Assembly (NCBI GenBank): GCA_003990765.1
Contig: RBNJ01000308.1
Coordinates: forward strand, 1-33,483
Origin: Jimgerdemannia flammicorona
Lineage: Eukaryota
Direction of reading: 5' to 3'
DNA length: 33,483 bases
In this document: positions 3,780 to 33,100 of the stretch, piece after piece
Numbering within the stretch: the stretch's first letter is position 1
How the letters are laid out: every line of letters begins with the position of its first letter
Position numbers and translations under genes: made by a program
The notes under the pieces: generated by a model
Database searches by the model: none
The model's input: only the letters and a program-made list of their open reading frames with translations
What the model was told of the DNA's origin: nothing

Positions 3780-4233
3780 TTACAATCTTCTTCACTTAGA
3801 CCCAATACTTCTCCATCTCTGAACTTCTCTTATGTTTTGATTGCAGCAGTCCAGGCTGTATCTAATTACTGGTACATTTCCTGTAAGTCAACTCCATTGA
3901 TTGTTGTAAGGATATTCTTATACCAAGTTTTCCAAATTAGTTCTTTGAACTTTGACCTTATGATAGTGATATATGCCTAAAACAAATGAAGTATAATTAG
4001 ATTCTATAATTTATGAGTGAAAAATATTAACATTATATAAACTTACCACAGTAATAGTAAAAGCTGTCATTCTTCTATCTAATGTCTTTAATTGGCATAT
4101 TTGGGCTAAACTTTGTATTATCTTCAACCTATGATATAATTTATAATTATGGTGCATGAAGAAAATTCAAATTATTTCTTTAAAAATAGGGCCTATATAG
4201 ATCCAATTGACTGTATACTCCTTGAACTTCACT
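3780..4233 (-). pseudogene. 3' part of an unknown intron-containing gene disrupted by the LINE
   Basis: Removing the LINE and one TSD joins ...RIFNLSIA*QVKF to KEYTVNWIYIGPIFKENNLNF in frame; a GTAAGT donor near 4047 is followed by an exon reading AYITIIRSKFKELIWKTWYKNIL. Confidence 0.55.
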
Positions 4234-4261
4234 AATTTTTTTTTTTTTTTTTTATAGTTAC

Positions 4262-7200: not shown

Positions 7201-7963
7201 TGTCCAATAAAGAGTAATTGAGGTGCCAATGTCCAGGCCCATCCCCACTCCCTCCAAAATGATCCTATTCTAGTAACCCCCAATGATCAGACCACAGACA
7301 CCACTCAGTCTTCAGTGACTTCCAAACATCTAAGCCCCAGCAGTTTGCCATCAGAACCCAGTCAATTCTTGTTCCCAGGCCACTTGCCCAGTGTATGTAC
7401 ACCCTCTTATTACTCCAGAACCCCCTGCCAGCATCCACCAGAACACTTAGCCTTTCCACTTCCTCCCATACCTCCAGACCTCCACTCCTACCCTCAGCTC
7501 CCTGCCCTCTATCAGTTCTATCCACCAGCACATCCCTGACCATATTAAAGTCCCCTCCAAGCATATCCACTCCAGCCTCTGTGAGGGCTCCACTCTCCTA
7601 GAGACTCTTCACCCAATTCACATGCTCACTCCATACAGCAGGGCAGTAATAGGAACCTACTATAACTGGCTCCTAACCTGTTCATATCCACTCTCCCCAA
7701 ACCAGCCTGTCTTCCCAGCTTCTCATATCTCATATCTCCCCTCTACCTCTCCAGACCAGAATCCCAACCTTGCCCATCCAAACTACCTCACCTCTCTATT
7801 CCTTCATCTATTCCAGTCTATCCAAATCATCCTCACATCTGACATCCTGCAAAAGAAAGAGATTAGCCTCCAATCTCTTCAGCTAAGCAAAAATGTTCCA
7901 ATGCTGAAACAAATCCTGTAACCTATTTACATTCAAAGAAAAAATGTTGGTTGTACTGTTTAT
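4262..7963 (-). pseudogene. LINE ORF2: APE endonuclease plus reverse transcriptase, with many stops and frameshifts
   Basis: APE motifs IFSLNVN, LFLLQD, GGDFN, RIDWVL, SDH; RT motifs LLYKNKG..DWKNWWPI, LQGDPLS.ILY.LFLEPL, FADD, GAKLN. Confidence 0.93.
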
Positions 7964-7999
7964 AAGAAATATTGTAAAATAGCAAGTGCATTTTCTACT

Positions 8000-10006
8000 A
8001 CTCTATGTTCATCTCCTCTTGTGCCAAGTCCAGATTATGTTCAGCAGACACCTCCTCCTCTTCAGCCCTTTTAGCCTCCAATCCAACCAGTAGCTCAGTT
8101 ATTTCTCCATCCTCCTTTTCCTCAAAATTCTCACAATACTCTAGGCAGACCTCCTGCCAGAGCTACAATCTATGATGCTCTGTCCAACAAAAGGTGGCTC
8201 TCTCATCAGCAGCAACTACCAGCTTGGCCTCTCTCTCCTTATCAACCTCATACTCTTCCTCCTTCAGAAAAACTACAAATATCTCCACCTTCAGTACCTC
8301 CACCACTCCATTACCATGCATGATCCTCACTCAATACTCATCACTCATCACTCTCAGGTCCACTTCTCTCAGCTCTTCAGCCACAAAGTTGTTCATCATC
8401 TAGCACATCTATAGTAGATTTCCCACCTTCTTCCTCCCTGGAGTCACTGACCATCCTCTATCCAGCATCAAGGTATCAGCTCCTATACTCATATTCTCAT
8501 CCCACTCCTCCTCTGAGACATCCACCAGTCTCTCCTCACTAACTGCCACTACCTGTCTCCCCTTCACCACATCAGGAACTCCAAAGTGCACTTGCTGAGT
8601 ACTGTGCATTGATACATCCTCTGCTGCCTGGCCTCTCACTGCTGGTCCCCATCTGATGAGAGTAGGAGGGATATCCTCCCAGACTTCAAATGTACCATCC
8701 TCATATAGGTCCTTACTCAGTGCCTTCCTGGCCTCCTCCTGACCCACCTCTACATTCTCTTTACTACTGCTGGCCCAGACACTTGCTTTGGCTCCTCCAG
8801 TATTCTTACTACCACCAGCAGCCCTCTTTGCCTCTCTCTCTAGTTTTGCCACAACTTTCTCTGCCTCTTGCATCCTTGGAACCTCTTCCATAGCCTCTTA
8901 TCAATATAGATATGCCTTCCATCAATAATCTCCAAGTGTGTCAACTCTACAAATACCTTTCAAGCTTTTGCCCTCCACTCTACTATATCACTCAGCTCCT
9001 CCAGCACCTCCAGCAGGTCCTCCTCCTCCTTCTCACTCCCCTTCACCCTTGTCATCTTATATATGAAGGCTCCCCACACCATTATAGAAGGCCAATTATG
9101 AGCTTTCCCAGTAGCCTCTCTCTCTGCCAATAAAATCTGAATGTCAATATCTTCTGTCTGGAAGGAGGTCTCTTCCCAGACCCTGAACCCAACATCAACC
9201 ACCTCTCTATACTCAGCCATGACTTCCTCAACTCTCCTTCTCATCTCCACAGCAGTTACTATAGGAACCCCTTTCACCAAGAGCTGCATCACTCTGGGAT
9301 CCCACCTCAAGCAGCATGCCATTGGGACATATATCTCCCTAACTATCAACCCAGCCTTCAGCACATCCTCCAATAGCTTAGTCTTCTCAAAGCCCACCTC
9401 CACCCCTTTCAGGCTCTTCAGGAACTTAACAGATACTGTACCATCCATCTGCTTCACAATTAGCCCCAGGACCATTTTTGCTATTACCACTAAGCCCTGG
9501 AAGCACAAGGTAACTACAAACTCTGAGATCAACTTCTTGAGTAATGGGGTCACTGCCAGACCTGTTATACTATCAGCCAGATCACTAGGCCTCATGCCTT
9601 TCCCACAACTTGGTCTATCATCAATAGTTCCATCTAGATTTTTTTCCAGATTGCCTGTTATGCTCCCATCAGCAGTCACTCCCTCAGCTGCTATACTACT
9701 AGCCTCACTACTCTGGCCCCCCAGAGAGACTCCCCCCTGCAGCTGCTGCCTCACATTCATCACTGTCTCCTTGTCCCTTCTCAGCCAACCCTCCAGTCTA
9801 GCTACTGGCTGTCTTTCCTTCACCTTATCTGTGAAGCTCACCCTTTCAATCTCCTGTCCTCCAACATTACTCTCTCCCCTACCACATCCTCCCACTAGCA
9901 AGTCTCTCATACTCTCTCCCAAGCCAGGGCCCCTCCCCACATATTGCCAGTCAAAAGCACTTGGGCCCCCCTGCCTAGTATATATTTCAGAATGCTCATT
10001 GCTCAC
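8000..10006 (-). pseudogene. LINE ORF1 (probable nucleic-acid-binding protein), fragmented
   Basis: 348-aa and 160-aa minus-strand ORFs directly upstream of ORF2 and inside the TSD-bounded element; call is based on position. Confidence 0.75.
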
Positions 10007-10650: not shown

Positions 10651-10844
10651 GATAGTAGGTATAGGTGGATGAGTGGATTGAGTGGATTTTAACAGTTTGG
10701 CTTATACATTATGATAGTAAGCAATGAATATAAGCATGAGTATGATATAGCAATATAGTAATAATTGTGTGAGTGTAAGTAAGTATAAGGATGGAAAAGT
10801 GGAGAGATTGAGAGGGGTGTTTTTATATCAATAAGCAGATGCAA

Positions 10845-10978
10845 GCAAGCTTGACCAGATATGAATATATGCTCACTATATATATGCTAAGCTTACTATA
10901 TATGCTTGCCACATATGCTTACTATATATGTGCTGAGCTTATTATATATACTCACTATATATATACTAAGCTTACTAT
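10845..10978. repeat. Minisatellite (AAGCTTACTATATAT motif), left part of the array interrupted by the LTR element
   Basis: Repeated (aag/gag)cttactatatat units that resume at 19860. Confidence 0.8.
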
Positions 10979-11182
10979 TGTCATGTAGTGGTCACTGAGT
11001 CCTTCAAATATGCCAGATTCTCTTCAAGGTGTATCTCTTAGACTAACTCAAGTTTGTTATAAGCAAGTTCTTATTGGAGTGCCTTCCCAAGGTCTTATAG
11101 TTCTCAAACTTCTTATCTTTAACTGTCTTGTTATCTCTTAGATTGCTTGCAAGGGATTGTGTGTAAGTGAACTGGAACTGAC

Positions 11183-11215
11183 TTTATTTCAGAGAAAATA
11201 AGAGGGGTATTTATA
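11183..11215 (-). promoter_or_regulatory. LTR TATA box (TATAAATA, 11215-11208) and poly(A) signal (AATAAA, 11188-11183)
   Basis: Motifs in the expected U3/R order on the minus strand; conserved in the other LTR (18504-18511 and 18479-18484). Confidence 0.6.
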
Positions 11216-11336
11216 CAAAATATAATTCAATGGTTGCTAAGATATAAAGCTAAATATAAATTCCAATAACTAAAATAAAATGCCAGGAGAGGAAAAACTG
11301 CTAAGTTCCAGGGTTGGCACTGATGGTTGTACAGGT

Positions 11337-11470
11337 TCAGGATGCTGGTATAATTCAGTGTTACATCAAAATACTGGTGCTGGAACAATTCCGCGTCACC
11401 TCAGAATGCTGGTGCTGGCATTATTTGGTATCACATCAGAATGCCAGTGCTGGCATTATTCAGTGTAACC
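11337..11470. repeat. Four ~33-bp imperfect tandem repeats in U3 (CAGAATGCTGGTGCTGGCATTATT), enhancer-like
   Basis: Repeated units upstream of the TATA box, one containing the near-palindrome AATGCCAGTGCTGGCATT; also present at ~18633-18765. Confidence 0.7.
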
Positions 11471-11477
11471 AAGGGAC

Positions 11478-12471
11478 TTAGAGCAGAATGTTCAGGACCA
11501 TGGGGGCTTCATCATCAGAGGTCAGAATGTCTTCGAAGGAGATGAGGTCTGCGAATTTGTCATGTAGGTCGTGCGTTTCGCGTATATACTTCGCGTGCTT
11601 CGTCGCGCGTCTTGCATATGTCGCGCAGGATGACGTCATCACCGATGACGTCATCACGTTCGGTGGCAGGGAAATCGGGAACAAGGAGATCTGGAGCTCT
11701 CCAGTCTATGAGGTTCTCTTCCACAAAATAGGGAACAAATGTGGGGTCTTGGGGAGGTCTAACCTGGATGCTTGGGCCTTGGAATACTGAGATCAATCCT
11801 TGCAGGAATTGGTCTGGGTTGTCCTGGAGGATGGGGTGCCAGAAGTCTTCTACTTTGTCACTATTGAGGGTGATAGTGGACTGGGCTTCTGTAGCCACCC
11901 TGGCTTCTAGTGCATTGATATGGCAGGATGACAGGTCTCTGAAATCTGAGACTCTAACATACTCCAAGTTGGGGATTGACCATGGTGCATGTCTGAAGAT
12001 CTGATGGATCTTCTTAGCTGTCCTTACCTTGTGTATATCCATAGGAGTGGCATCTTGTAGCTCTTGAGGGCTGGCTTGTGGGAACTCCCAGCAGAGGAGG
12101 TTTCCTATTTCATACTCCTGCCACATTTGGAGGCATTCAGTAGCAATGGTGATCCTTGTTTCCATTTCACAGCAGTAGAGGATATAATGATAAGGGTCAC
12201 CAGTACCCAGATTGACACTAGGAGTCCTTCTTGAGTGGGTCCTCATAGCTCTTCTGATGTCTAGAAATATCCTTTCTTCGACTGAGGTGCCTTGGTGGTT
12301 CCTTGGCCTTGAGGTTTGGTGAGCAGCAGGTATTTTGTTTGTAGTAAGTCTTTGAGCTATTTTGGAATTGGTGGGTCTTGTTGGTTGCTGGTACTGTAGT
12401 TCCTTGATCCTTCTTTTATATTCCTCAGTATGCTTGCACTGTGGTCACAATGACTCACAGTTGGTCATCAT
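11478..12471 (-). pseudogene. LTR-encoded ORF of ~330 aa, unknown function (second copy at 18774-19755)
   Basis: The two LTR copies have different lesions (4-bp insertion in one, ~8-bp deletion in the other), so their consensus is one frame from MMTNCESL to APMVLNILL*. Confidence 0.75.
11534..11680. promoter_or_regulatory. CpG-dense island with tandem CRE-type palindromes (GATGACGTCATC twice)
   Basis: Palindromes at 11629-11640 and 11644-11655; dense CG/CGCG in an otherwise CpG-free window; regulatory role is inferred. Confidence 0.6.
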
Positions 12472-12575
12472 TGCTCATCTCATATACCATATGATCTTCT
12501 TGTGCTCTGATCTCGTAGCTTGCAAAGAAAGACTGTCTCCTGTGCTGATGTCATCATTCTGGGGTCACCATCACA

Positions 12576-12585
12576 TCTTCCTCCT
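12576..12585 (-). other. Polypurine tract
   Basis: AGGAGGAAGA on the minus strand immediately before the TG of the 3' LTR. Confidence 0.85.
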
Positions 12586-12888
12586 GAATAAGGATCTTCT
12601 TGAGCATCCTTATTCATTGGTCCAGTCCTGAAAAATTTACTGATCCCATAATCTCTGGCAAGGGGTTGAAAAGTGGTATTTATGGGCTGGTGTCTTCTCT
12701 TTGTATTTTGGCATGATGGTGAAGGGTCACTCCCTTCATATAGAGCAAGGGCCTAATTCTGATCTTGACCAATCAGTTGATGGTTCAAACTCCTCTGGCT
12801 TTGAAAGTCTCACAGATGAGTAGTTACTGGTACCGTATCTCTTAGAGAATGGTCCAGACAGATAGCCTGCTGGTCATGAGACATACTG

Positions 12889-13960
12889 TTATGATTCGCG
12901 GACTAGAACCTCGCAGGCAGTCATCACATTTTGCTTCTCTTGTATAGGTTTGTGGTACTTCTTGAGTCTGTTCCTATGTACCATGGTAGGCAGTATGGTC
13001 CCTGAGATTTTTCTAAGCCAGAAGGTAGTTTCCTTGATATCTTGCATATAGAAGGGTCCTTTCCATTTGGGCTCCAGTTTTCGTGACCATGAGGCTTCTA
13101 CCATATTTCGATACAGTAGGACCTTTTCTCTGATTTGGATGGGTTCTAGGGTCTTATGATTCTTTTCCACATTCTTCCTTATCAGTACTTGTGACTTGAT
13201 AATGTAATCTTTAGCCTTCTTCCTGATTTGGTGTAGTCTCCAGATTTCTGCATCTACCCATCTCCAAGTTAGGTCTAGATTTGTGGCTGAGGTTCCATCA
13301 GAATCTTCTTCCCCAAAGAGCAGTTCTCTTGGGGTAAAGTGTGTGCTCTGTGATCGTATATCTTGTAGAACAGAGAGGGCAGTTGGGAGATAGCTATCCC
13401 AATTCTCATATGTCTCTGAGATCTTCACCAGGATATTCTTGAGGATCTTGTTAGTTCTCTCTGTCTGTCCATTTTCTTGAGGGTGGTATGCAGTGATCTT
13501 GATGTACTGGATCTTGTATTTCTGATACATTATCTCATGGAATCCATTGACAAATTCTGTGCCACAGTCTGTTGTGATTTGCTTTGGTGTCTTATAGTGG
13601 CAGATGATTTCTCAGTACAGGAAGTCAGCTATAGAGAGGGCATTGGCTTCTTGTAATGCTCCTACTTCTATCCATTTGGTAAAGAGGTCTACAATAACTA
13701 TAATATAGCGGTTTCCTGATAGTGTTACTGGTAGTGGCCCAATGATATCTATTGCAATGTAGTGGAAGGGGATAGGCTCAATTCTTGATGACCCGAGTGC
13801 CTGGTCTTGCTGATCTTGTTTCTGTTTTTGGCACTTGTCACACCCTTTGACAAATTGGCACAGGTCTTCTTCCATCTTGGGCCACTACATGGTTCTTCTT
13901 GCTTTGCTGTATATGTTGATTCCTCTTAGGTGTCCTTGCTTGTGTACTTCCTTCATTACT
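12889..13960 (-). pseudogene. Integrase (zinc finger, DDE core, GPY/F motif)
   Basis: H..GHL.G, CDKCQ, IDIIGPLP, VDLFTKW, TDCGTEF, AYHPQENGQTER, WKGPF. Confidence 0.93.
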
Positions 13961-14149
13961 TGATACTTCTTGTATTCAGGTATTACTAGCTTTCCTCCTT
14001 TTCTGAGTATATTGTTGTCTAGTTCAAATTGTTTCCAAGTCTGGTTGATGATGGTGAATGTCTAGGGTTTGAGATGGTTAAGCATCTTCTGCTGCCCAAG
14101 GTAGCTGATTAATCCATAGTATAGCTCCTTATTCATATTGAATAGTCTT

Positions 14150-15480
14150 GATGGGGGTGTTTTGGGGTATCCTTGAGAGTGCATCAGCATTGGTGTTGGT
14201 TCTTTCTGAGCAGTGCTTGACAGTACAGTCATACTCTTGCAGCCTATAGATCCATCTGGCATATATTCCTTTAGGGTTCAGAGTGTGGAATAGCTAGGCA
14301 AGAGTGGAATGGTCTGTTTGAATAGTGAAGTGTTTCCTGGCTAAGTAGTAGTAGAACTTATCTACTGCTCAGACTACTGCTAAGTATTCAAGTTTACATG
14401 ACTTGTAGTTCTGTTCTGCTCCATGGGTACCTCAGCTTGTGTAGGAGATAACATATTTATGTCCATCTTTCTTCTAAGCTAGGACTGCTCCAAGTCCTAT
14501 AGCACTCGCATCTGTCTGCAGGATGAATTCTAGGTTCCAATCTGGTCTTCTGAGGATAGGTGCTTGGGTCAATCTAGTCTTGAGTTCATTGAAGGTTTCT
14601 TGGTGCTCCTTGGTCCATTCAAATTTGATTTCCTTCTTCAGTAGCTCATAGATAGGTGCTGCAATATTGGAATATTCTTTGATGAATCTTCTGTAGTAGC
14701 TGGTCAGTCCAAGGAAGGCATGGACTTCTGTGGTTGTTCTGGGTCTCAGGTAGGCTGCAACAGCCTCAATCTTCATAGGGTCTGTGTGGATTCCAGTCTG
14801 GTTGATGAGGTGTCCTAGGTAGGCGATTTCTTGAGCTGCAAACTTACATTTCTTGGGCTTGATGTAGAGGTCATGCTCTTTGAGCTTCTTGAGGGCTAGC
14901 TGTATGTAATTGATATGTTCCTGTGCAGTGTTGCTGAAGATGATCACATCATCAATATAGACAAAGAGCCATTTTCCAATCTCATTGCTGAAGACTCTGT
15001 TCATCATTCACTGAAAACTTACTGGGGCATTGCACATTCCAAATGGCATTCATAGGTAGATATAGGTGGCATCAGGTATGATGAAGGCTGATTTCTCACT
15101 GGCATCTTGAGTGAGTCTGATCTGATGGAAGTCTGAGAACAGATCCAAGGTGGTGTAGTATTTGGCTTTGCTTCCAAGGGTGGTAAGGATTTCTTGAATA
15201 TTTGGCAAGGGCTGCCTATCCTTCTTGGTGATGGCATTGAGCTTCCTGTAGTCGATGCAGAGTCTTAGCGCAAACTCTCCAGGCTTACTTTCTTTCTTTG
15301 GGGCAAGGACAATGGGTGAAGTCCAGGGACTGATAGCTTGCTTGATGATTCCGGCTTCTTCCATTTCCTTGAGTTCTGCTCACAGCCATTCTCTATAGGC
15401 AGGTGGTATGGGTCTGGCTTTCTGATAGATGGGCTTGGTATCACCAGTGTCAACTTCATGATAATACTTGGGTTCTTGAT
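14150..15480 (-). pseudogene. Reverse transcriptase and RNase H
   Basis: SPWTSPIVLAPKK, LRLCIDYRKLN, TLDL.S.FHQI, VYIDDVII, FLGLTSYYRRFI, LQTDASAIGLGAVL. Confidence 0.96.
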
Positions 15481-15644
15481 TGTGGATATCCCTGAAGTCT
15501 GTAGCAAGTACTCCTTCATTCTGATACAGGATCTTGAGAAGTTGCCCCCCTCAGGGGAAAGTTTTCTCCAATGGTATATGTGTACTTATTCTGGTCCTTA
15601 TCTTTCTTATGCTCAAGTTCAGTAATCTTAGTGGTGGCATAGGC

Positions 15645-16010
15645 TCCTCTTCCAGTAGATCCAAAGCCTTGTTCTCCTCTCTTGGTCTTGATGAGTTTGA
15701 TGGCTTCAGTGATCTTGGGCTTCTTGATTTCATGGATCAGCATCTGGCCAATCCTGTCATGCTTCTTGATTTCGAATGAGGTAGTGGGGTTGTAATTCCT
15801 GACTATGAGGAAGATCTCACCAGTGTAATCAGAGTCAATTACTCCTCCTTCAACTGAGATTTCACTTTTGGCCAGACTGCTCCTGGTCTTGATAATTCCA
15901 GCATAGTTCTCTGGCAGCTTGACTTCAATTCCAGTGCCAAGTAGGGTAGTGGTCTGTGGTTCAAGGGTAGCATCTTGAATGCTGGCAAGGTCCATTTCTA
16001 TGGCTCCTTC
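15645..16010 (-). pseudogene. dUTPase domain of the pol polyprotein
   Basis: All five trimeric dUTPase motifs: MDL, RSSLA, GVIDSDYTGEI, DRIGQM, RGEQGFGSTG. Confidence 0.95.
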
Positions 16011-16429
16011 AGTCTTATATTCTGAGATTTTGGCTTTGGGGTGAAACTTCTTGACCTTGAGGGTGATGTCTGATTCTTGTTCCTCCTCACCATCACTGTC
16101 AGCCTGAAGCTCAGGGGACTGGTCATCTTCTTCTGCTTTCCTTTTTGCTTCAGTGGCTTCTTGCTTGTGTTTCTGTTGGCAGATTTCCTGACTTCACTGA
16201 TACAGGACCAGCAGTCATTCAGGGGTTCAGAGCAGTACATCCTAGTACCATGGAGGCATCTTCCTTGAGGGGCATAGCCATCAATGATCTTGTTATACCA
16301 CTGCTCATCTGTGAGCTTGGGTGTCTTGTTCTTGTTCTTGTTCACTGAGTGCATGAAGACCTCTGTGTCCTCTTCATCTCCTTTCTCCATGTCTGGTAGA
16401 ACTCCTTTATAGACATTGATAGAGACTTG

Positions 16430-16770
16430 TACCTTTCTTCCTCTATAGTTGATCTGCATCTTCTAGGCATTGAGATCAATGATGGCCTTGGCCTTGTGAA
16501 GCCATTGGTTGCCAATGAGAATGTCATAGTTGGTGGTACTTGTAACAATCACATCTACTGGGATAGTAGCTCCTTCTATCTTAATGGAGACTTCTCAGAT
16601 TTTGCCAAGGGGGGTAGCTCATATACCATCTACTGTAATATAGACCATCTTGGTGGACTCTTCAATGTCTCAACCTAGGCAGTCAATTGCCTTCTTACTC
16701 ATGAGGCATCCTCCAGTGCCAGTATCAATGATGGCATTAAAGATACAGTCTTCGATCTGGCATGGAGTAT
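16430..16770 (-). pseudogene. Retropepsin aspartic protease
   Basis: AIIDTGTGGCLMS active-site motif, followed by a D-I-L-I-G-N-Q-W-like motif near 16505-16525. Confidence 0.85.
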
Positions 16771-16899
16771 AGGCTGATGTCTTGTACTGGTCTTCAGATT
16801 CTTCACCTGAGTTTTCAGATTCTTCCTGTGCATTGTGAGCTTCTACAATCTTGTACTCTTGATTCTTGACAGTAGTTGTAAGTCCTACTCTCAACTGCT

Positions 16900-18154
16900 G
16901 TCTAAAGGCAGAGACTTCAGCTAGCTGTCCAAAAGTAGCATTGACCTTCTATTCCTTGAGGTCCTTGTAGATATCATACTAGTGGATCTTGGTATTGCAT
17001 AGCTTCTATTCCTTCTTGCTTTTGCTTTCTCCTGAGACTGGAGTAGTGCCTTCTATGATTTGGTAGGCAGCTTCATCTAACTCCATGTCTTGATCAATCT
17101 CCTCAAGTTGAGTCTTGCTTTGAATAGTGATAGCTGGGGTCTTCTTTGGTCTTCCAACTGGCTTGCTGTTGCTCTTCTTGTCATAGGGCTTGGACTGGGT
17201 TCTGGTACCTTCAGTAGCAGGGTAGAATTCAAGCTTCTTATAGTATTCTTCATCATCAGTGTCACCAATCTCCTCGATGACTATTGCATTGATTTATTCT
17301 CTGGTTTTGCTAGCATTGCTTGGTTGGGCTTTGCGTCTTGTTTTGGTCATGCAACTCTTTGCATAGTGGCCTTCTTCTCTACATCTGAAGCATGTGATAT
17401 TGCATTCTTCTGTAGCAGCTGCAAATCTCTGCACTGATCTCCTGTTGGTGCTTCGGACTTCTCTAACAACATCACCAAGGTGTGCAGTCATCTCGGCGAA
17501 CTGCTTGGCGAGTTCCTCCACTGGGTCAGCTTTGGCTGCCTTGGGGGTAGGTGGAGTTGGTTGTCTGTTTATAACTGTAGCAGATATAATACTGATTGGC
17601 TTTGATGACTCCATCTTGATGCCAGTTATTTTCTCTATAGAGTGTTCAGCAGGGTGTCTGGCAGTCTAATATCTCTGTACAAAGACCACTTTCTGATCAA
17701 GGGTCAGTGCAGCTGGGGTAGATCAGATTGCTAGGGCAATTTCAGGGTGAACTCCTTTGAGGAAGGTTGAATCTGCTATTTGTTCCTTGAGGTGGTCATC
17801 ATAGCCAGCCAAGACAATCTGGTGGCAGATTTGGGTATAGAATGAGTTGGGATCTTCACTAAGTTCCTGGCAGATAGTATTGAGTTGATCCTTAAGAGCT
17901 TGCTTGATCTCTTCAGTATTGTATGTTGTTCTGAGGAAGGCCTTCATGTTGGCAAGTTTGGCTGCACCAGCATCAGCAATAGTGGCTGCATTGAACTTGT
18001 CTCTGGCAGGTTCTCTGAGGCTAACTGGTAGAAGGGCTAATTGTGCATCCACACCAAGGGCTCATACAGTGGCAAATTGTTCAAAGTCTTCAATGAAGGT
18101 CAGGATTGACTCTTCAGTAGTATATCCATAGAATGTGGGGGGGTGCATTTCCAT
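16900..18154 (-). pseudogene. Gag with a CCHC zinc knuckle
   Basis: Starts MEMHPPTFYG; capsid-like Q...E....F and FLKG motifs; CFRCREEGHYAKSC. Confidence 0.88.
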
Positions 18155-18254
18155 CTTGTCTTAAATTCTTACAGGGGTGACTCTTGTAGTCAGAGTAGTT
18201 GTTGTGGGGGTTGTTCATTTTTCAGCTTAAAAGTGAGAGATTTGTCTTGAATCA

Positions 18255-18271
18255 CTAGCCAATGGGCACCA
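18255..18271 (-). other. Primer binding site
   Basis: TGGTGCCCATTGGCTAG starts 3 nt after the CA end of the 5' LTR; TGG is complementary to tRNA CCA; tRNA identity not resolved. Confidence 0.75.
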
Positions 18272-18274
18272 AGT

Positions 18275-19859
18275 TGTTATGTAGTGGTCACTGAGTCCTT
18301 CAAATATGCCAGATTCTCTTCAAGGTATATCTCTTAGACTAACTCAAGTTTGTTATAAGCAAGTTCTTATTGAAGTGCCTTCCCAAGGTCTTATAGTCCT
18401 CAAACTTCTTATCTTTAACTGTCTTGTTATCTCTTAGATTGCTTGCAAGGGATTGTGTGTAAGTGAACTGGAACTGACTTTATTTCAGAGGAAATAAGAG
18501 GGGTATTTATACAAAATGTAATTCAATGGTTGCTAAGATATAAAGCTAAATATAAATTCCAATAACTAAAATAAAATACCAGGACAGGAAAAACTGCTAA
18601 GTTCCAGGGTTGGCACTGATGGTTGTACAGGTTCAGAATGCTGGTATAATTTAGTGTTACATCAAAATACTGGTGCTGGAACAATTCCGCATCACCTCAG
18701 AATGCTGGTGCTGGCATTATTTGGTATCACATCAGAATGCCAGTGCTGGCATTATTCAGTGTAACTAAGGGACTTAGAGCAGAATGTTCAGGACCATGGG
18801 GGCTTCATCATCAGAGGTCAGGATGTCTTCGAAGGAGATGAGGTCCGCGAATTCGTCATGTAGGTCGTGCGTTTCGCGTACTTCGCGTGCTTCGTCGCGC
18901 GTCTCGCGTATGTCGCGCGGGATGACGTCATCGCCGATGACGTCATCACGTTCGGTGGCGGGGAAATCGGGAACAAGGAGATCTGGAGCTCTCCAGTCTA
19001 TGAGGTTCTCTTCCACAAAATAGGGAACAAATGTGGGGTCTTGGGGAGGTCTAACCTGGATGCTTGGGCCTTAGAATACTGAGATCAATCCTTGCAGGAA
19101 TTGGTCTGGGTTGTCCTGGAGGATGGGGTACCAGAAGTCTTCTACTTCATCACTATTGAGGGTGATAGTGGACTGGGCTTCTGTAGCCACCCTGGCTTCT
19201 AGTGCATTGATATGGCGGGATGACAGGTCTCTGAAATCTGAGACTCTAACATACTCCAAGTTGGGGATCAACCATAGTGCATGCCTGAAGATCTGATAGA
19301 TCTTCTTAGCTGTCCTTGCCTCACATATATCCATGGGAGTGGCATCTTGTAGCTCTTGAGGGCTAGAACTCCTGGAAGAGGAGGTTTCCTATTTTATACT
19401 CCTGCCACATTTGGAGACATTTGGTAGCAATGGTGATCCTTGTTTCCATTTCACAACAGTAGAGGATATAATGATAAGGGTCACCAGTACCCAGGTTGAT
19501 ACTAGGAGTCCTTCTTGAGCAGGTCCTCATGGCTCTTCTGATGTCTTGGAACATCCTTTCTTCAACTGAGGTGTCTTGGTGGTTCCTTGATCTTGAGATT
19601 TGGCAAGCAGCAGGCATTTCATTTGTAGTGAGTCTTTGAGCTATTTTGGAATTGGTGGGTCTTGTTGATTGCTGGTACTGCAGTTCTTTGATCCTTCTTT
19701 TATATTCCTCAGAATGCTTATACTGTGGTTGCAATGACTCACAGTTGGTCATCATTGCTCATCTCATATTCCATATGATCTTCTTGTGTTCTGATCTGGT
19801 AGCTTGCAAGGAAAGGCTGTCTCCTGTGCTGATGTCATCATTCTGGGGTCACTGTTACA
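18275..19859 (-). repeat. 5' LTR (1585 bp)
   Basis: TGTTATGTAG...CACTGTTACA; adjacent to the PBS; differs from the 3' LTR mainly by C>T and G>A changes. Confidence 0.95.
18829..18970. promoter_or_regulatory. CpG island with two GATGACGTCATC palindromes in the 5' LTR
   Basis: About 27 CpG in ~140 bp by hand count; palindromes at 18921-18932 and 18936-18947. Confidence 0.6.
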
Positions 19860-20270
19860 CTATATATACTGATCATAATGCAAGCAATTAATTCTTATTA
19901 ATAATATATTAATGAAAGCTTGGCCAGACATATGCTACTTATCAACATAAGCTCACTATATATATATTGAGCTTACTACTTATACTCACCATATATATAC
20001 TAAGCTTACTATATATACTGGCCATAATGTAAGTAATTAATTCTCATTGATGATATATTGATAAAAGCTTGACCAGACATATACTGCTTATCAATATATA
20101 CATATAAGCTCACTATATATATATTGAGCTTACTATATATATATGCTGAGCTTGCTAGTATTACTTATCATATATTAGCCATAATGTAAGTAATTTAATG
20201 ATATATATATTGAGCCAAATATATACTGCTTATCAACTTATGATAAGATCAATACAATGTATATATATTG
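19860..20270. repeat. Minisatellite with a higher-order repeat (AAGCTTACTATATAT units in ~150-bp blocks)
   Basis: Repeated cttactatatatat, gccataatgtaagtaatt and ccagacatat..ctgcttatcaa blocks. Confidence 0.8.
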
Positions 20271-20744: not shown

Positions 20745-21140
20745 CCTTTCACAAAAGATATTATTATAATGTAATTTTTTCATAAATCTGTATCAAACTA
20801 TTAATATAGGTATTGCCTTAGGAACTTGAGAATATACTCAATGTGTTTATTTTCATTAATATAGATTTTTGGTTATAAAAATGATAATAGAAGTCAGCAT
20901 ATCTCAGTTGCATACTTTGGTGGAAATAATTATATATGACTCTTATTGAGGTATGCTTAATCTGCTTGGATGTGGCTTTTTCTTGATATCTCAAGGCCAA
21001 CAAAATCTGCTCATTTTCATTGAGATTCCATATTTTTCTGCATTTTTTCTAGGTGGGGTTTTATATAGAAGTAACTATTTTTCCTCATCAGCAAATTTGC
21101 TTGTCTGGTCCAATTGGCTAGCCGCAGTTGGCTCATTGAC
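20745..21140 (-). pseudogene. Possible degraded exon of an unknown gene
   Basis: Frame MSQLRLANWTRQANLLMRK...LFPPKYATEIC...EYILKFLRQYLY is interrupted only by TGA/TAA/TAG explainable by C>T decay and ends at a GTAAGA donor. Confidence 0.35.
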
Positions 21141-21463
21141 CCTCACTGTAAATTAATTAGGATAGGACTGACAAATTAGAATAGTACATGTAAAGTAGAT
21201 AGCTAAAAAATATATAAATAAATAAAAATGCAAGCTAAGAGAAAGGCAGCAAAAGTGCTCCCAGTCTCTTCTCTCTTCATCATGCTGCCAAAAAGGATTT
21301 CCACCAGAGTCATTGACACTCCTCCTGACCAGTAGTGCTATACTAGGTAGATATAACAGATATGTTCATTCCACCCTCTCCTCCTGACTTTGACTACTCA
21401 TTGTACACCTTGACAGCCTCAACCTACTCATCTCTAACTAATACAAACAAACCTCACCCAAGC

Positions 21464-22795
21464 ATGGACAATAGAGTGAGTAATTTCAAGTATTTGTGAT
21501 CTTGTATATCATAAAAAACTAAAGCTAACTCCTTCATCTATTTTCTTTCATTACAGCCAAAAGATGTGAGTAATGTCAAGTATTTGTGATCTTGGACATC
21601 ATGAGTAATTTTAAGTATTTGTGACAAATGTGATTAATCCCCCTCATCTTTTATCTCATATTGTAACAGGAAGATGTAAGTAATTTCAAAGATTTATAAT
21701 CTTACACATTATGTTAGTTGTGAAAATTAAGTTAATCCCTCAATATATTTATTTTTTATTGCAGCTGAAAGTTATCATAAGTATTCAAGTATTTGTACAC
21801 CATAAGTAACTATAAGTGTTTTTGATAAATATGATTAACTCTCTCATCTATTTCATCCTTTATTGCAAAATATTGACTGGATACCATTGAGTAATTTAAA
21901 ATATTTATGATCTTGTCATATCAGTTGTGAAAATGAAGCTAATCCCCACATATTTTCATCTTTTACAATAGTTACATATGAGTAATTTCAAGTATTTGAG
22001 ATCTTATATATTATGTCAATTATGTAAATAAAACTAATATCTTGTCATTTAATCTTTTGTAGTTTTCAGTGAGTAATTTAAAGTATTTGCAATCTTATAC
22101 ATCAAGTCAGTTGTGAAACATGAAGCTAACTCTCTCACCCTTTTATTCTTTATTATATCAGAAGAATGCAGTAATTTTGAATATTAGTAATTTAGCATAT
22201 TATGTTAGTTGTAAAAGATGATAGCTAACTCTCTCATCATTTTATCTGTTATTGCAACAGGGTAATGAAATTGTGAGTAATTTCAAGTAATTGCAATCCT
22301 ATATATAATATCAATTGTAAATATTAAAAATAACTCTTTCACTTTCATCTTTACAACAGAGTTATGTGAGTAATTTTAATTATTTGTGATCTTATACATC
22401 ATGTTAGTTAGAAATATGAAGCTAACCCCCTCATTCTTTATCTTTTGTAACACTAGTTTTATGTGAGTAATTTCAAGTATTTGCAATCTTGTGCATCAAG
22501 ATAGTTGTAAAAAATGAAGCTAACTCTTCCATTATGTTAATCTTTGTTACAATAGAGAACTGTGAGTAATTTCAAGTATTGCATCATATCAGTTATGAAA
22601 ACAAAGCTAACTCCTCATCCTTCTTATTGTTTGTAGCACCTGTATGATATGAGTAATTTCAAGTATTTGAAATCTTATATATTATATTAGTTTTGAAATT
22701 AAATTGAACCCTCTCATCTATTATAGGATAAGAATATTAAGAAAGTAGAAGAGAAGAAAGCAGAAGAGAAGAAAGCAGAAGAGAAGAGCAAATGA
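21464..22795 (+). pseudogene. Micro-exon gene: 14 exons and 13 homologous introns, ~61 aa; several donors mutated
   Basis: Each repeat is GTGAGTAATTTCAAGTATTTG...GCTAAC...pyrimidine tract...YAG. Exons: 21464-75, 21557-65, 21670-75, 21765-76, 21869-86 (tentative), 21972-77, 22063-68, 22162-67, 22261-72, 22360-65, 22457-62, 22556-61, 22637-48, 22727-95. Confidence 0.75.
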
Positions 22796-23373
22796 GGTCA
22801 TGTGCTCTGCATATAGACTAATATACACCAGGTTGTATTTATATATATACTGTAAAATAGTTAGATCTTGCCATCAATTTTTCTATTACCTATATATAAA
22901 GCATGCATCTAAAATGCATACAAGTACATATATTAAATGGAGATATTTTATTTCGCTATTGGTCAATATGTGGCTCCTGTTTCTTTCTGAGTGACATAAC
23001 TATCCATGGTCTCTTACCAAACAAACTATAATTAAATTATTTTTGTCTTTTGTAGTTATGTGTCTTGTCTAATGTATTATATAATTAGAATAATAAAGAG
23101 TCGATATTAGTTGCTTCCATGTTGTATGTTACCAGTACTTTATATTGAATGTAAAAACTGTGGGCTTGATATAATGAAACAATTGAGATAGAGATTTCAA
23201 TTAATTATGATATATATTTAAGCTAATCTCAGGTTACTCTTATCAATGACATATTTGATAGAGATTGATTAATAGCAATTAGGCAGACAAACTTAATGTA
23301 AAGAGAATTTTGCTATTGATAGATCCATCAACAATATATATATCATACCACCCAATGGCAAAATTAAAAATAT

Positions 23374-23688
23374 CATCACAAAACTAGAATCGCAATTCTG
23401 AGGTATTCCAGAACAAATTTAGCAGTATAGATACACTATTTTAGTTACTAGGGGACATTGTTCTGGAGTAGATGAAAATTACCCAAATCATTGCTAAAAT
23501 ATCTGGATCAATGTCAGAAATAGATTGATTACATTATGACTAATATCTGGATATATACATCATGAAACTAGAATCACAGTTCTGAGATATTCTAGAATAA
23601 ATTTAGCAGTATAGATACACTATTCTAGTTACTAGGGGACATTGTTCCAGAATAGATGAAAATTGCCCACTCATTGCTAAAATATCTG
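23374..23688. repeat. Direct repeat, two ~130-bp copies
   Basis: CATCA..AAACTAGAATC...AATTTAGCAGTATAGATACACTATT...CATTGCTAAAATATCTG at ~23374 and ~23558. Confidence 0.9.
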
Positions 23689-23859
23689 ATGCATTCTAGT
23701 CAATATCTGGATCTGTGCAAAAATATTTTGCTTTGGTTTTTGAACTGTCCTAGAACTCTCAAAATTACATCCAGATATATCTCTAGTTTCTGAACAATTC
23801 TATCCAGATGCTTCATATATATATATTTATATTATAATTATATAAAATAAGAATGCAGC

Positions 23860-24230
23860 AGATGATAGACCACAGGATATAAGGTTATGACAATGATGAC
23901 TTCACTTGTAAGATAATAATAGACTGCAAAATAATGATAATGGACTTAAAAATGATAATAGACTACAAGACAAAGATATCACAAGATGATGGAGTGCAAG
24001 ATAACAGACAGCAAGATAATAAATGATGAGATAATGGATGGTGAGATGAGGGATGGTGAGATGATGAACAGTGAGATGACAGATGACAAGATGATGGACA
24101 GCAAGATGGTGGACAGTGAGATAATAGATGGTATGATAACAGATGGTGAGATGATGAATAGTGAGATGATGGGCAGTAAGATGATAAATGGCAAGATGAT
24201 AGATAGTGAGATGATGAAAGGGTGACCAGG
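23860..24230. repeat. 15-bp minisatellite (GAGATGATGGACAGT-like)
   Basis: Visible 15-nt periodicity. Confidence 0.9.
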
Positions 24231-24279
24231 TGGCATGAAACCAATATGTACTATATTAGATACTGGGTCATGACAGGAA

Positions 24280-24750
24280 GCTGGAATATGGTGAGCAGTC
24301 CAAAGTTAAGAAGTCAAAATACCATAGGTTGTCAGAAGACAGGATGCTGGAATATGATAGGTCATCAGAATATAGTGAGTTGTCAGAATATAGTGAATTA
24401 TTGAAAGATGAGAAGGTGGAATATAATAAGTCATTAAAAGGAGCAGTCAGAATATGGTAGATTATCAGAAGATGGGAAGCTGGAATACAGTGGGTCATTG
24501 GAATATAGTAGGTCATTGGAATATAGTGGGTTATTGGAATATAGTGAGTCATTGGAATACAGTGAGATGGGAATATGATGAGTTATGAAGTTGGAATACA
24601 GTGAGTCATCAGAGTTTGTTAGGTAGCTGGAATATAGTAGTTGTTGAGAAGCCAGAATATGGTAGATACAGTGGATCATCAGAATATAGTAGGTCTTCAG
24701 AATATAGTAGGTCTTCAGAATATGGTAGGTTGTCAGAAAACAGTAGGTTT
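24280..24750. repeat. ~18-bp minisatellite (GAATATAGTGAGTCATCA-like)
   Basis: Repeated gaatat(a/g)gt units. Confidence 0.88.
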
Positions 24751-24825
24751 TTGGTCAGTAGTGCAGGGGCCTATTAATATAGGGTATAATGGTAGTGTCA
24801 GAGAGAGAGATAGCATTATTCAGTG

Positions 24826-25350
24826 AGTTACAGAGACATTTGCTGACCAGATAATAAAATAAATAAATAGAATGATCATAAGGCTTCAGTTATAGAGACA
24901 TTCACTAACCAGATAATAAAATAAAATAAAATAAATAGAATGGTCATAAGGCTTCAGTCACAGAGACATTCACCAACCAGATAATAAAATAAAATAAAAT
25001 AAATATGTAGAATGGTTATAAGGCTTCAGTCAGAGAGACATTTACCAACCAGATAATAAAATAAAATAAAATAAATATGTAGAGTGGTCATAAGACTTCA
25101 GTCACAGATATTTACCAACTAGATAATGAAATGAAATAAAATAAATATATAGAATGGTCATAAGACTTCAGTTATAGAGACATTTGCTAACCAGATAATA
25201 TAATAAAATAAAATAAATAGAATGATCATAAGGCTTCAGTTATAGAGACATTCACCAACCAGATAATAAATAAATAAAATGATCATAAGGCTTCAGTATT
25301 GCTGACTAGATAATAAATGAAATAAATAAGACTTCAGTTATAGAGATATT
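24826..25350. repeat. ~55-62-bp tandem repeat, about 9 copies
   Basis: CAGAGACATTCACCAACCAGATAAT(AAAAT)nAGAATGGTCATAAGGCTTCAGT. Confidence 0.92.
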
Positions 25351-26894
25351 TAAATAGAAATATTCTCACTTGGTTTCTGAGTGTTTCCATCTTCTGCCTG
25401 ATTGCTGTAGATAATGTAGCAATAAATGGGTATAATCTCAATGTATATAATACTTGTTTCATAATGTGGCACAGATATCAATGATCAACCTACCAAGGAT
25501 TACAAAAGAATAATCAATGATACTAACTAGCTTACCATAGTCCTCAAACAGCCATCTTGGCATGTCTACCCAGAGCATCAGATCAAGGTCTTTGTAGGCA
25601 GAGATGCAAACATATTATTGAGAAGCTGAATACTCTCAAGACTCAGGTCTTCAACTCTGATGAGTAGTGTAGTATTGTGGTGTTTTTTTCAGAGCACAGA
25701 ATATGCCACAGTTCCAAGATCTATCTGATCCCTTCCTATTGTAGGGCTGATGATCCACCGGCTACACAGGTTCTCTGGTAGGACAAGGAGAGCAGTAATG
25801 GTGAGGTGTACTGCTCCAATATATCACCTCCAACACCAAATGCTGACTAAAGACAGTTATGTCAAAAGCTTGGTCAGTAATATAGACAGGGGCTTATTAA
25901 TGTAGATTTGGGGGGAGGATGTATATAAGATAAGTAGGGAGGAAGAGAGGGAGAGTGGGAGGGAGATAGAGTATATATAAATACATGAGCATATATGGGG
26001 GCAAAAGCATAAGAGTAGTATAGTGATAGAAGATGTCCAACAAATCTATTTAATTCTGTCTGCTCAGTCCCTTTCCTTTATCTTTTTATCTCATTCTATA
26101 CTTGTGCTCCACCCCCCTTTCCCAAAAAAAGAAAAAAAGACTCCACCTACTGACTGCTCTGGATTGTGACAATATTCTCCTTTAAGTATCAGTAGATAAA
26201 ATGTGATCTCAGCATCAAAGTCCACCAAATTACTTCCACCAGTTTTCAGAGAAATGGAAGTGATATTAATTTCATCATCATATACAACAGTGACAACAGT
26301 ATCAAATTCAACACCATCTTTCACAATTGTGAAAGTACTGTATGTCTTTTTCATATTCTTTACCAAGCAGTGTGATATTCTGGCCAGGACCTAGAGTTGC
26401 TTCACCATTGCCAGGGAGTTTTCACAGGATACCACTGATGTAGTAAGTATTCAGGAGTAGCAAAACCTGACCTTCAATCATCTGCAGCTTGTCATATAGC
26501 AGATATCCATCAATGGTGCCTACCAGGGAAACATAGTTATGTTATTGAGAATTGAGTCTGATGACAATGACTAAGTACAGAATGGCAATGATATAAGTGG
26601 CATCTAGTCACTACAAAAATATTTCCCAAGATACAAAGACACTAACCAAAATTCTAGTAGTTTGTTATTGCAAAGTTACAATAGAGTGCAGTATAGGGGG
26701 GGGATAGGGGAAGATTGCTTGAGTTTGTCATTACCTTCAGGGGGCTTGAACAGGCTCAGTGATGGTAACTTCACCCAGGATAGCTATTTGAAAATGTCAT
26801 CTATATTATCATTCAGCATAAGTGATATACAAATTTGAACCAAAATACATATTCATACTATGAAATTAATGTCATGCTATATTTGAAGAGAAAA

Positions 26895-29774: not shown

Positions 29775-30170
29775 TGCTCATTGTCCAGAGGCTCAGATTT
29801 ACCATTGCCCATTGTTCAACCTGAATGTGAGTTTTTTGTGAGATTAAGGAGAGAGTGAGTGTGTTATAATATTCAGATTTCTGGAAAATTATCTGATGCT
29901 CAATCACATCTGCCACTCAGCATTGCCCATTGTCCAGTAGCTCAAAATCATTACCCATCACCCAGCAGCTTGCAATTATCATTTTCTGTCATCTAGTGGC
30001 TCAGATTCATCATCACTCATTGTTCAGTAACTCAGATTCATCACTCATCATCCAATAGCTCAGCTCATATTCATCATCACCCATCAACCAGTAGCTCAGT
30101 CCAGCAGCTCAGATTTATCACCCAATGTTCAGCAGCTTGCATTCATCATTGCCCATTATCCAGCAGCTCT
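29775..30170. repeat. ~28-bp degenerate tandem repeat, with inverted copies at 28960-29080
   Basis: CAGTAGCTCAGATTCATCATTGCCCATTGTC units; the reverse complement GATAATGGGCAATGATGAATCTGAGCTGC is at ~29051. Confidence 0.8.
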
Positions 30171-30187
30171 GTATTTCTCATCTTAAT

Positions 30188-33100
30188 ATGACACACCCTA
30201 AAAAATCTGCTCTCAAAGATTCTTTGGAATGCCCCATTTGCAACCAGAAGTGTGTGAGTTGTGGAGGGTTGACCCAGCACTTCAACACTATACATACATA
30301 TGACACTGAATCTACCAGAGCCCCTTCAGTAACTGCAGATCAAGATAATATGCAGACTGACATGACAAACAGCTCAAGTAGTAAGCAAGTTAGCCTTGGT
30401 CGAACTATATCTGATATACCAACTGAGAGTGATAATGACTGTGAGGATTCTGACCAAGAGATAGCAAGTGACAGCAGTAATGAAGATGAAGATAGTTATG
30501 AAGCAAGTGACAGTAGCAATGAAGATGAAGACAGTTATGAAGTAGAATGTGATAATCTCAGAGACAATACTTTGGAGCTTTTAGAGGACATCATGCCACT
30601 TTCATCTATGTTGAAATTCAGGAATATTCTCTCAGATTGTTGTAGAGGTCATATCTATGATAGCACAGGTCAAGGCTCATATATATTTGATATACAAATG
30701 AAATATTATGAACAGTATCATAATCCATACTATCCCTGGACTAGTGGCAATGAATTGTAGTTGACAAACTTCATCTTCTTCAAGACAAGAATGTCTATTG
30801 GAGCTGCAGATGAATTTCTAGAAGCTATTAGAAGTGGACGGATGAATATTCAGAATGTTAGAGTAGCTAATTTGAAGGCTCAGCACTTGATAGATATGAT
30901 GATTGATTTTGGAATTAATAAGGTTGAGTTTACAGAGCTTTAACTTCAATAGTTTTTATTTGATTTAACTAATTTATATATATATATATATATGTTTTAG
31001 AAATTCTGGCAAATATCTATTCTGCTTGATGGATTGGAAAAAAATGAATCATGGAGTGGAGAATATCACCTCTGGTTTCGAAATCCTATTGAGATTATTT
31101 AAAGTTTGTTCTGCAATCCTCTTTTTAAAAATGAGATAATTTATGCTGCTGAGAAGCAGTATTCACATTCTGGAAGATGGATATATTCTGAAATACACTA
31201 TAGTGACTGGTGGTGGAAAACTCAGGTACATATATCTTTAATAATAATTTGCATATTTCTTTATCTATTTATTTTTCTTCTGAAACTCCGCCAGCTGAAA
31301 TAGTAAGTCTGAAATGACAAGTGAGCCAAACAAGTGAGCTGAATGAACGAGCCAAGTGAGTGAGCAAGCATGAAAAAAAATTTGATCTTATATCTAATCT
31401 CAAACTTTTTCTATACTATTTTTATAATTTTTACAATCTTTAATAATTAAAAATATTTATAGGATATATTACCAGAGGGAGCAATACTTATTCCTCTTCT
31501 TTTTGGCATTGATGAGACAAATGTCAATGTTCTAGGAAGAGCAACATGCTATTCATTATATCTCAGCATTGGAAATCTTCCTAGAAGGTTACATCAAAAT
31601 TATCAACAGCCTGGCTATGTTCTTGTTGGATATTTTCCATCTCTCAAGCCTACTGGAAGAGAAGGACATACTGAATACTTTGCATAGGCCAAGAAGTCCT
31701 TATATCATAAATGTATGAAGAAAATATTCAAATGTCTAGATGATACATCAAAAAGATAATATTAACTTAATTACTACTAATATAATTATTTATCTAAATT
31801 ATAATATTAAAATTATTCTCTTAACTATAATTTCAGAGGATGTTTATAGAAAAGCCCTGATGGCAAAACTCACTGGTGTTTTCCAGTTCTCATGGCCTTT
31901 CAGGTGGATTATCCGGAATCCTGCAAACTGACTCTTATACATCAGAACTATACTTGTCCTCAGTGTCTGGCAACAAAACAAGAATTTGGTGATCTGCAGA
32001 CAAAATATGAAGACCAAACAGTAAATCAAATGTCAAAGATTTATCAACATATAACAAAATTACAAGAAGATGGTATATCTGAAGATTCTTTTTGTCAAAA
32101 ATATGGTTTAATATATCAAAAGGTATATTTATAAATTATTTAAAAAATGATTTTAAATATTAATTATTGTAATAAATACTGATTAATATATTTATTTATT
32201 TAGAATTTACTCTGAAATGTCCCAAGGAGCAATATCTATTTGACAATTATGTCTGATCTATTGCATCAGCTTAAAAAGGGTTTGGATGCATCTAATGCAA
32301 TGGTTTGAAGATCTGGTTCATCATATTTATGCTCCCCGGGAAGCAAACAGATATCTGGATGAACTGTATAGGCGAATTGCACTAGTTCCTTGATTTACAG
32401 GTCTCAAGATCTTTCCAAAGGACATTCATAATATGCAAAATATAACTGCAAGTAAATATGCTCAAATTATGAAGGTAAATTATTTTATTTTATTTATTTT
32501 CAATAATTATAGACTCTGAATTTATATTAATATTATATTTTCCATAACTAATTCAGATCTTTTTACCATGTTCCTGAGGATTCTTTGATGATAAGAATGC
32601 CTTAAAAGCCATTGGAGCTATCCATGCTTTTGTGAACTGATTTATATTGATCTTATTACCAATTCAAGAAGAGGGATCTCTGGCAGATGCTGATGGACTT
32701 TTAGCTGAATTTGATGAGCTTAAGAATGGATTTCAGATCATTGACAGTTGGTCTGCAAATATTCCAAAGATATATGCAATGCAGCATTATACAGAGAATA
32801 TACAAGAATTTGGAACTCCTGGCAACTTTGATACAGAATCTACCAAACATCAACATATTGCAGACACATACCTACCCTATAAGGCAACCCACAAGCATGA
32901 TTCAGAACCTCAGATACTAAAATATATTCATTGTTGATCAGCAATTTATGCCAAGTACAATTTTCTGAAGTTTATAAATATACAGACTGGAGCTGACATC
33001 TCTGTTATAAATCAAAATCAACATCAACATCTCTTGGGATCCAGAATTCCATGTTGTCCAATGGAAATATCTGCTGCAAGCCAGAAATTTGATTTAAATC

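Follow-up and report, generated by a model that had tools for sequence, protein, structure and literature searches.

The question raised by positions 21464–22795 (forward strand) of a 33,483-nt stretch of Jimgerdemannia flammicorona DNA (contig RBNJ01000308.1 of assembly GCA_003990765.1; the whole stretch is called the window below) is whether a tandem array of intron-like units, separated by spacers of a few nucleotides, is a gene composed of micro-exons or only a repeat of intron origin. At a probability that we put at about 0.55, the array is best explained as an orphan, lineage-specific micro-exon coding gene that would have grown by tandem duplication of exon + intron modules and would now be decaying in this copy; this assessment rests on the DNA sequence.

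The array is composed of 13 homologous intron-like units of 75–104 nt each (from unit 1 to unit 13: 81, 104, 89, 92, 85, 85, 93, 93, 87, 91, 93, 75 and 78 nt) with 12 spacers between them, which measure, in order, 9, 6, 12, 18, 6, 6, 6, 12, 6, 6, 6 and 12 nt; every spacer is a multiple of three (3n) and lies in phase 0. It begins directly behind the ATG at 21464, whose context is favourable (A at −3 and G at +4) and which is preceded by a pyrimidine-rich leader and TATA-like motifs, and it ends in an exon carrying a stop codon, 3′ of which the sequence is AT-rich. When the exons were joined, 61 codons and TGA were obtained, and 117 of the 183 coding nucleotides (64%) were located on exons of at most 18 nt, all 12 internal exons being 6–18 nt long and 3n. 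An earlier note, made on this DNA from its letters alone, had placed 13 homologous introns with 3n phase-0 micro-exons at the same coordinates and with the same spacer lengths and had given a stop-free spliced peptide, and the same 61 residues were recovered here; the motif that it had read as TATATA at about 21352 is TATAA (21352–21356). With a second, in-frame ATG at 21362 as start, the first exon may be 114 nt long and the product 95 residues, and TATAA would then lie only 6 nt before the start.

Units were matched by an intron profile (nhmmer) in 13 of 13 cases, and the profile gave no match outside the array in the 33.5-kb window below E = 5. Tandem Repeats Finder reported periods of 99 and 190 nt across the array, and a 20-nt block at the 5′ end of the unit, searched with up to 3 mismatches, occurred 11 times in the window, each time within the array (0.03 occurrences expected by chance). 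The consensus unit starts with GTGAGTAATTTCAAGTATTTG, has a GCTAAC-like block 25–32 nt before its end, then a pyrimidine-rich stretch, and closes with a terminal YAG; the introns are of the fungal type GTRAGT...CTAAY...YAG. In the 12 units with a TAAY branch block, the distance from this block to the acceptor was 25–32 nt. Exon starts were set without use of the reading frame, as the first AG downstream of the TAAY branch block, and this frame-blind rule returned the annotated acceptor in 12/12 units possessing one. A GT donor is present in 8/13 introns, the exceptions (ATAAGT, TTGAGT, ATGAGT twice and GCAGTA) being exactly the five non-canonical donors named earlier, and an AG acceptor in 12/13 (intron 4 ends in CAA). 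The branch block reads CTAAY in 8/13 units; GCTAAC, previously given as the branch sequence of the repeat, is exact in 6/13 and does not hold for the remaining units. Donor, branch (a CTRAY-like block 20–35 nt ahead of the first following AG) and acceptor are all intact in five units, another three combine GT and AG ends with a weakened branch, and five are broken. These signals support the assignment of the units to the spliceosomal-intron type, so far as sequence can.

The 3n rule was examined against the introns of the same array as an internal control. Intron lengths modulo 3 are 0, 2, 2, 2, 1, 1, 0, 0, 0, 1, 0, 0 and 0, versus 12 of 12 spacers that are 3n, and the intron alignment contains 12 separate internal gap runs, of which only one is 3n. 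The number of independent exon-length events was taken as 3 to 5, as length differences of 3, 6, 6 and 12 nt separate sister modules and a further change is seen in exon 9; with all of these changes 3n, comparison with the intron indels by Fisher exact test gave P = 0.009 for 3 events and P = 0.001 for 5. The earlier argument that all-3n spacers are very unlikely by chance is upheld to this extent, but the naive value of (1/3)^11 is too generous, because the units include sister pairs and are not independent. A neutral minisatellite free of frame constraint would be expected to show indels of any length, whereas the exon changes are all 3n. The joined exons are open in one of six frames, the one set by the ATG, and the chance that 35 internal codons are free of stops was 0.03–0.065 under four null models. 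Mutual identity of the 6-nt exons was 0.37, versus 0.35 expected from base composition, while six-column windows of the introns had a mean identity of 0.70–0.71 and were as variable as the exons in only 3/83 windows (or 2/81). Taken together, the excess of 3n changes over the intron background, the open frame and the divergence of the exons fit past selection on the reading frame and are not predicted by a uniformly neutral repeat.

Introns were 53–81% alike in the multiple alignment, which was used for these identities because a pairwise aligner with lenient gaps gave inflated values (0.74 in a shuffled control), and the tree placed as sisters I2/I4 (support 0.91), I3/I5, I7/I11 and I6/I12, pairs that lie at lags of 2, 4 and 6 units. 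Introns 2 and 4 have in common an 11-column insertion with a second internal 5′ block (ATGAGTAAT at 21601 and ATAAGTAAC at 21802) and are therefore sister modules from a two-unit duplication. Exons 7 and 11 stand in register, with 4/6 bases equal, inside an 81% match over 103 nt, so that head-to-tail homologous units that include their exon were found; older exons are no longer alignable. This pattern supports growth of the array, at least in part, by duplication of exon + intron modules, as the earlier note had suggested; its alternative of serial intron insertion is disfavoured by the absence of copies outside the array in the window, by the lack of a stable fold and by the co-duplicated exons.

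Several lines of evidence weigh against a working micro-exon gene. Donors lack GT in 5/13 introns, acceptors lack AG in 1/13 and branch blocks depart from CTAAY in 5/13. The first G of the donor is kept in 9/13 units, within the range of the other consensus G columns (6–10 of 12–13), and only G5 (12/12) and G3 (10/11) are conspicuously kept; purifying selection on splicing is not apparent in the alignment since the units diverged. The description of the conserved blocks as exactly splice signals was not borne out: similarity at the 5′ end of the unit extends to about +28, and retention of the donor G does not exceed that of other consensus G columns. Changes relative to the consensus were, per site, 0.286 for C>T and 0.265 for G>A, with 0.09 for T>C and 0.07 for A>G, which agrees with the previous suspicion that this copy may be dying; G/C columns changed at 0.32–0.35 and A/T columns at 0.12–0.17, and because A/T columns change less, the 'conservation' seen in the AT-rich 5′ block is partly a product of mutational bias rather than constraint. 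An in-frame stop occurs within 6–25 codons in 13/13 introns. For the 43-residue frame of exon 1, no relative was found among 5.8 billion clusters or 1.84 billion representatives. Neither a hydrophobic N-terminus nor a cysteine nor a known domain is present in the peptide; over its first 35 residues, Kyte-Doolittle hydropathy in 9-residue windows reached at most 1.33 from ATG 21464 and 0.49 from ATG 21362, in keeping with the remark that no signal peptide is evident. The locus lies between a long terminal repeat (LTR) retrotransposon and Plavaka transposase fragments, with three tandem arrays within 2.6 kb downstream; the region is therefore repeat-prone, and the prior for a mere repeat is raised. 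Finally, the shared ancestry of the units leaves only 3 to 5 independent 3n events.

The decay and the setting would both be expected of the main competing reading, an intron-derived minisatellite that evolved neutrally, in which an intron with a few exon bases was amplified head to tail, the splice signals and the 6-nt spacer were inherited, and the 3n variants and the open frame arose by chance. It accommodates a donor G1 kept no better than other Gs, a GC-to-AT decay that is uniform over the unit, the five broken donors and the one broken acceptor, the unrelated tandem arrays just downstream (23969–24238, 24334–24780 and 24785–25347), an exon-1 frame without homologues in the libraries searched or any known domain, and the reduced count of independent 3n events that follows from common ancestry. 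What it leaves to coincidence is that exon length changes are all 3n, versus 1/12 of the intron indel runs (P 0.009–0.001), that, of the six frames, only the one given by the ATG is free of stops across the joined spacers (P 0.03–0.065), that an ATG in good context stands at one end and a stop-bearing exon at the other, and that divergence among the spacers far exceeds that in the remainder of the unit. On this balance the minisatellite is considered rather unlikely, though it is the competitor to be taken most seriously.

The remaining readings treat the introns themselves as the active part. That the locus is a non-coding RNA gene, with the intron-like units as the product (a small-RNA host gene, or a source of small interfering RNA from tandem repeats), would suit the 5′ block similarity that reaches to about +28, well past a 6-nt donor, and a peptide without any recognisable feature, but it leaves the 3n rule and the open frame unexplained. 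A structured intronic RNA was rejected: no Rfam family was matched at E up to 1 over 20800–25600, RNAalifold gave 0 consensus pairs for 11/13 introns (I2 and I4 were left out for their internal 11-nt insertion), and the mean folding z-score of the 13 introns was −0.02. Only a slight chance is accordingly given to a non-coding RNA locus. Serial insertion of a mobile intron (introner-like, or by reverse-splicing transposition) into a pre-existing short open reading frame (ORF) would explain why the introns are homologous while most exons are mutually dissimilar. Against it, all 13 copies stand in one array and none elsewhere in the window, the introns have no stable fold, exons 7/11 and 2/4 were duplicated together with their introns, and 13 phase-0 insertions within 186 nt would need an explanation of their own. 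The 20-nt 5′ block, searched against 241 million metagenome records, returned 10 loci with a single match each and no arrays or full-length copies, the profile matching the seed alone; these are chance matches in AT-rich contigs. Serial insertion is thus held to be very improbable.

In the reading as an orphan micro-exon gene, the layout would be a first exon of 12 nt (or 114 nt), 12 internal micro-exons of 6–18 nt and a last exon of 69 nt. The array would have been built through tandem copying of (micro-exon + intron) modules, one or several units at a time, with 2–6 codons gained per module and no shift of frame, and selection on the frame would have acted while the modules diverged. The introns would presumably be removed singly by intron definition. 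A mutation bias from GC to AT would then have cost this copy five donors and one acceptor. If splicing joins each donor to the nearest acceptor, exon 4 would be read into the broken intron 4 and meet a stop after 10 further codons, and the full 61-residue (or 95-residue) product is most likely no longer made from this copy, as judged from its splice sites. Because all modules are symmetrical, a frame-preserving product would still be possible despite the broken units, if intact donors pair with acceptors behind them. A bolder proposal is a live fungal counterpart of the schistosome micro-exon genes (MEGs), that is, a gene family that would grow by tandem phase-0 micro-exon + intron modules, in which point mutations of single donors would silence modules by absorbing them into a longer intron, isoforms would be tuned both by splicing and heritably, and exons would diversify far faster than introns; to this a small chance is given. 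The combinatorial exon skipping that the earlier note envisaged is unsupported.

Comparison with known systems gave partial likenesses only. For schistosome MEGs, most of the coding sequence is described as lying on very small symmetrical exons whose skipping keeps the frame, with conventional-looking terminal exons and a neighbourhood rich in transposable elements, the products all carry a signal peptide, and the genes 'appear to be restricted to platyhelminths' (PMC4350168). The locus studied here resembles them in having most of its coding sequence on small 3n exons, flanking terminal exons and a setting rich in transposable elements, and differs in that its peptide has no hydrophobic N-terminus, that the organism is a fungus and that no sequence relation to MEG families was found (the exon-1 frame is without relatives in the libraries searched); the homology still visible among its 13 introns may be a further difference. 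The original definition of a MEG reportedly demands that about 75% of the coding sequence lie on micro-exons, of which 64% here would fall short. With the introner-like elements of fungi, which occur as many near-identical copies dispersed in unrelated genes, the array has in common that several spliceosomal introns of one fungal genome are recognisably related; its own copies within the window stand in tandem at one locus, are 53–81% alike, are ordinary in length and lack a stable fold. Introners are longer than regular introns and have a stable structure, and the present units measured 75–104 nt, with a z-score of −0.02 and 0 consensus pairs.

Closer in mechanism is the gain of introns by tandem duplication, in which a segment with splice signals is copied head to tail and yields new introns, as would be the case here; the difference is that the array comprises 13 amplified modules, every one of which carries a micro-exon. 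To our knowledge, the tandem-duplication gains on record comprise one or a few duplications each. The potato RdRp gene is reported to be a case of intron gain by tandem genomic duplication, and in Zymoseptoria duplication within a gene is described as a rare route that accounts for <1% of single gains (PMC4457414). Very short fungal exons are likewise on record: a long-read cDNA study of Coprinopsis cinerea reports exons of 1–3 nt and puts at about 9% the share of gene models that contain exons of ≤15 nt (10.1101/2024.05.10.593147), so 6-nt exons can be spliced in fungi. The micro-exons of C. cinerea and of Trichoderma Xlr2 resemble those of the array in their shortness, but they are single micro-exons in conventional conserved genes and not parts of a gene that consists almost wholly of them between homologous introns. 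No report of a fungal gene made of tandem homologous introns and micro-exons was found in the literature searched (subscription journals and closed supplements lay outside the search). If the proposed reading is true, the locus would extend the micro-exon gene architecture beyond flatworms for the first time, as far as that literature shows, and would be an unusually clear record of gene lengthening by exon + intron copying, with the common origin of 13 introns still visible. It would bear on the origin of introns (tandem duplication versus mobile introners) and on how runs of 6-nt exons are spliced under intron definition, and it would be a warning to annotators that no standard gene finder would call such a gene. 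Should the array instead be just a decayed, intron-derived minisatellite, it would be a curiosity. The positions of the exons, introns and upstream motifs are listed in the table.

Table. Elements of the putative micro-exon gene and its upstream region (window positions; exon and intron assignments are predicted).
Feature	Position	Strand	Length (nt)	Remarks
Candidate TATA box TATATAAA	21211..21218	+		5′ of pyrimidine-rich leader; read from the sequence, role putative; stronger than TATAA at 21352
TATAA motif	21352..21356	+		6 nt upstream of in-frame ATG at 21362
Possible 5′ extension of exon 1	21362..21463	+		ATG 21362 in frame with ATG 21464; +34 codons; frame open from 21347
Exon 1	21464..21475	+	12	ATG with A at −3, G at +4
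Intron 1	21476..21556	+	81	Intact; GTGAGT donor, CTAAC branch, CAG acceptor
Exon 2	21557..21565	+	9	
Intron 2	21566..21669	+	104	GT-AG; branch TTAAT; internal second 5′ block ATGAGTAAT at 21601
Exon 3	21670..21675	+	6	
Intron 3	21676..21764	+	89	GTAAGT donor, branch TTAAT, CAG acceptor
Exon 4	21765..21776	+	12	Aligns with exon 2 across a 3-nt indel
Intron 4	21777..21868	+	92	Both ends broken (ATAAGT, CAA); internal second 5′ block ATAAGTAAC at 21802
Exon 5	21869..21886	+	18	Start ambiguous, acceptor lost
Intron 5	21887..21971	+	85	Broken donor TTGAGT; CTAAT branch, TAG acceptor
Exon 6	21972..21977	+	6	
Intron 6	21978..22062	+	85	Broken donor ATGAGT
Exon 7	22063..22068	+	6	In register with exon 11, 4/6 bases equal, within 81% match over 103 nt
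Intron 7	22069..22161	+	93	Intact (GTGAGT, GCTAAC, CAG); nearest to consensus
Exon 8	22162..22167	+	6	
Intron 8	22168..22260	+	93	Broken donor GCAGTA (1 base lost versus consensus)
Exon 9	22261..22272	+	12	
Intron 9	22273..22359	+	87	GT-AG; branch ATAAC
Exon 10	22360..22365	+	6	
Intron 10	22366..22456	+	91	Intact
Exon 11	22457..22462	+	6	
Intron 11	22463..22555	+	93	Intact
Exon 12	22556..22561	+	6	
Intron 12	22562..22636	+	75	Intact; 11-nt deletion within 5′ block
Exon 13	22637..22648	+	12	
Intron 13	22649..22726	+	78	Broken donor ATGAGT; degenerate branch TGAAC
Last exon	22727..22795	+	69	22 codons + TGA; Lys/Glu-rich tail

The tail of the last exon is itself a 15-nt tandem repeat (22739–22787, 3.3 copies, 97% matches). 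One metagenome contig had a 5-nt insertion behind position 22766, where the depth of 11.8 suggests low-complexity matches from other organisms. A single soil-metagenome DNA run shared 0.07 of the words of the window; its contigs piled up on the LTR element (bins 461–1233), whose relatives are very abundant in that run, with 0–6.7 elsewhere and 0.59–0.79 in the bins of the array, and at this low cover no joints within the array were seen among them. This points weakly to an array that is not a high-copy repeat in that soil sample.

Between the micro-exon array and the arrays downstream, a 112-nt segment occurs twice (23374–23485 and 23558–23669; 89% alike, 184 nt apart). The three downstream arrays are unrelated and have units of 15 nt (23969–24238, 13 copies), 18 nt (24334–24780, 8 copies) and 68–74 nt (24785–25347, 7 copies); the periods of the first two are 3n, and 23969–24238 is open in several frames. 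The retrotransposon upstream is of the Ty3/Gypsy type (about 10830–20200, minus strand) and has reverse transcriptase, RNase H and dUTPase; its LTRs (about 10978–12381 and 18274–19665) are 97–98% alike, and a third LTR-like fragment lies at 19–318 (87%). The best relatives of the reverse transcriptase/RNase H fragment were only 45–52% identical and came from plants, Rhizophagus and metagenomes. Reverse-transcriptase remnants were also found at 4–10 kb, and positions 4001–10000, a stretch of 6 kb whose strands differ strongly in composition (GC skew −0.37 to −0.50) and which contains an RVT_1 fragment (5750–6217, minus strand), are probably another decayed retroelement. At the other end of the window, an ORF with a weak C2H2 zinc-finger match (30095–30760, plus strand) lies upstream of two Plavaka transposase fragments (31463–31687 and 31850–32134, plus strand), which belong to an element broken into several frames and have their relatives mostly in Basidiomycota.

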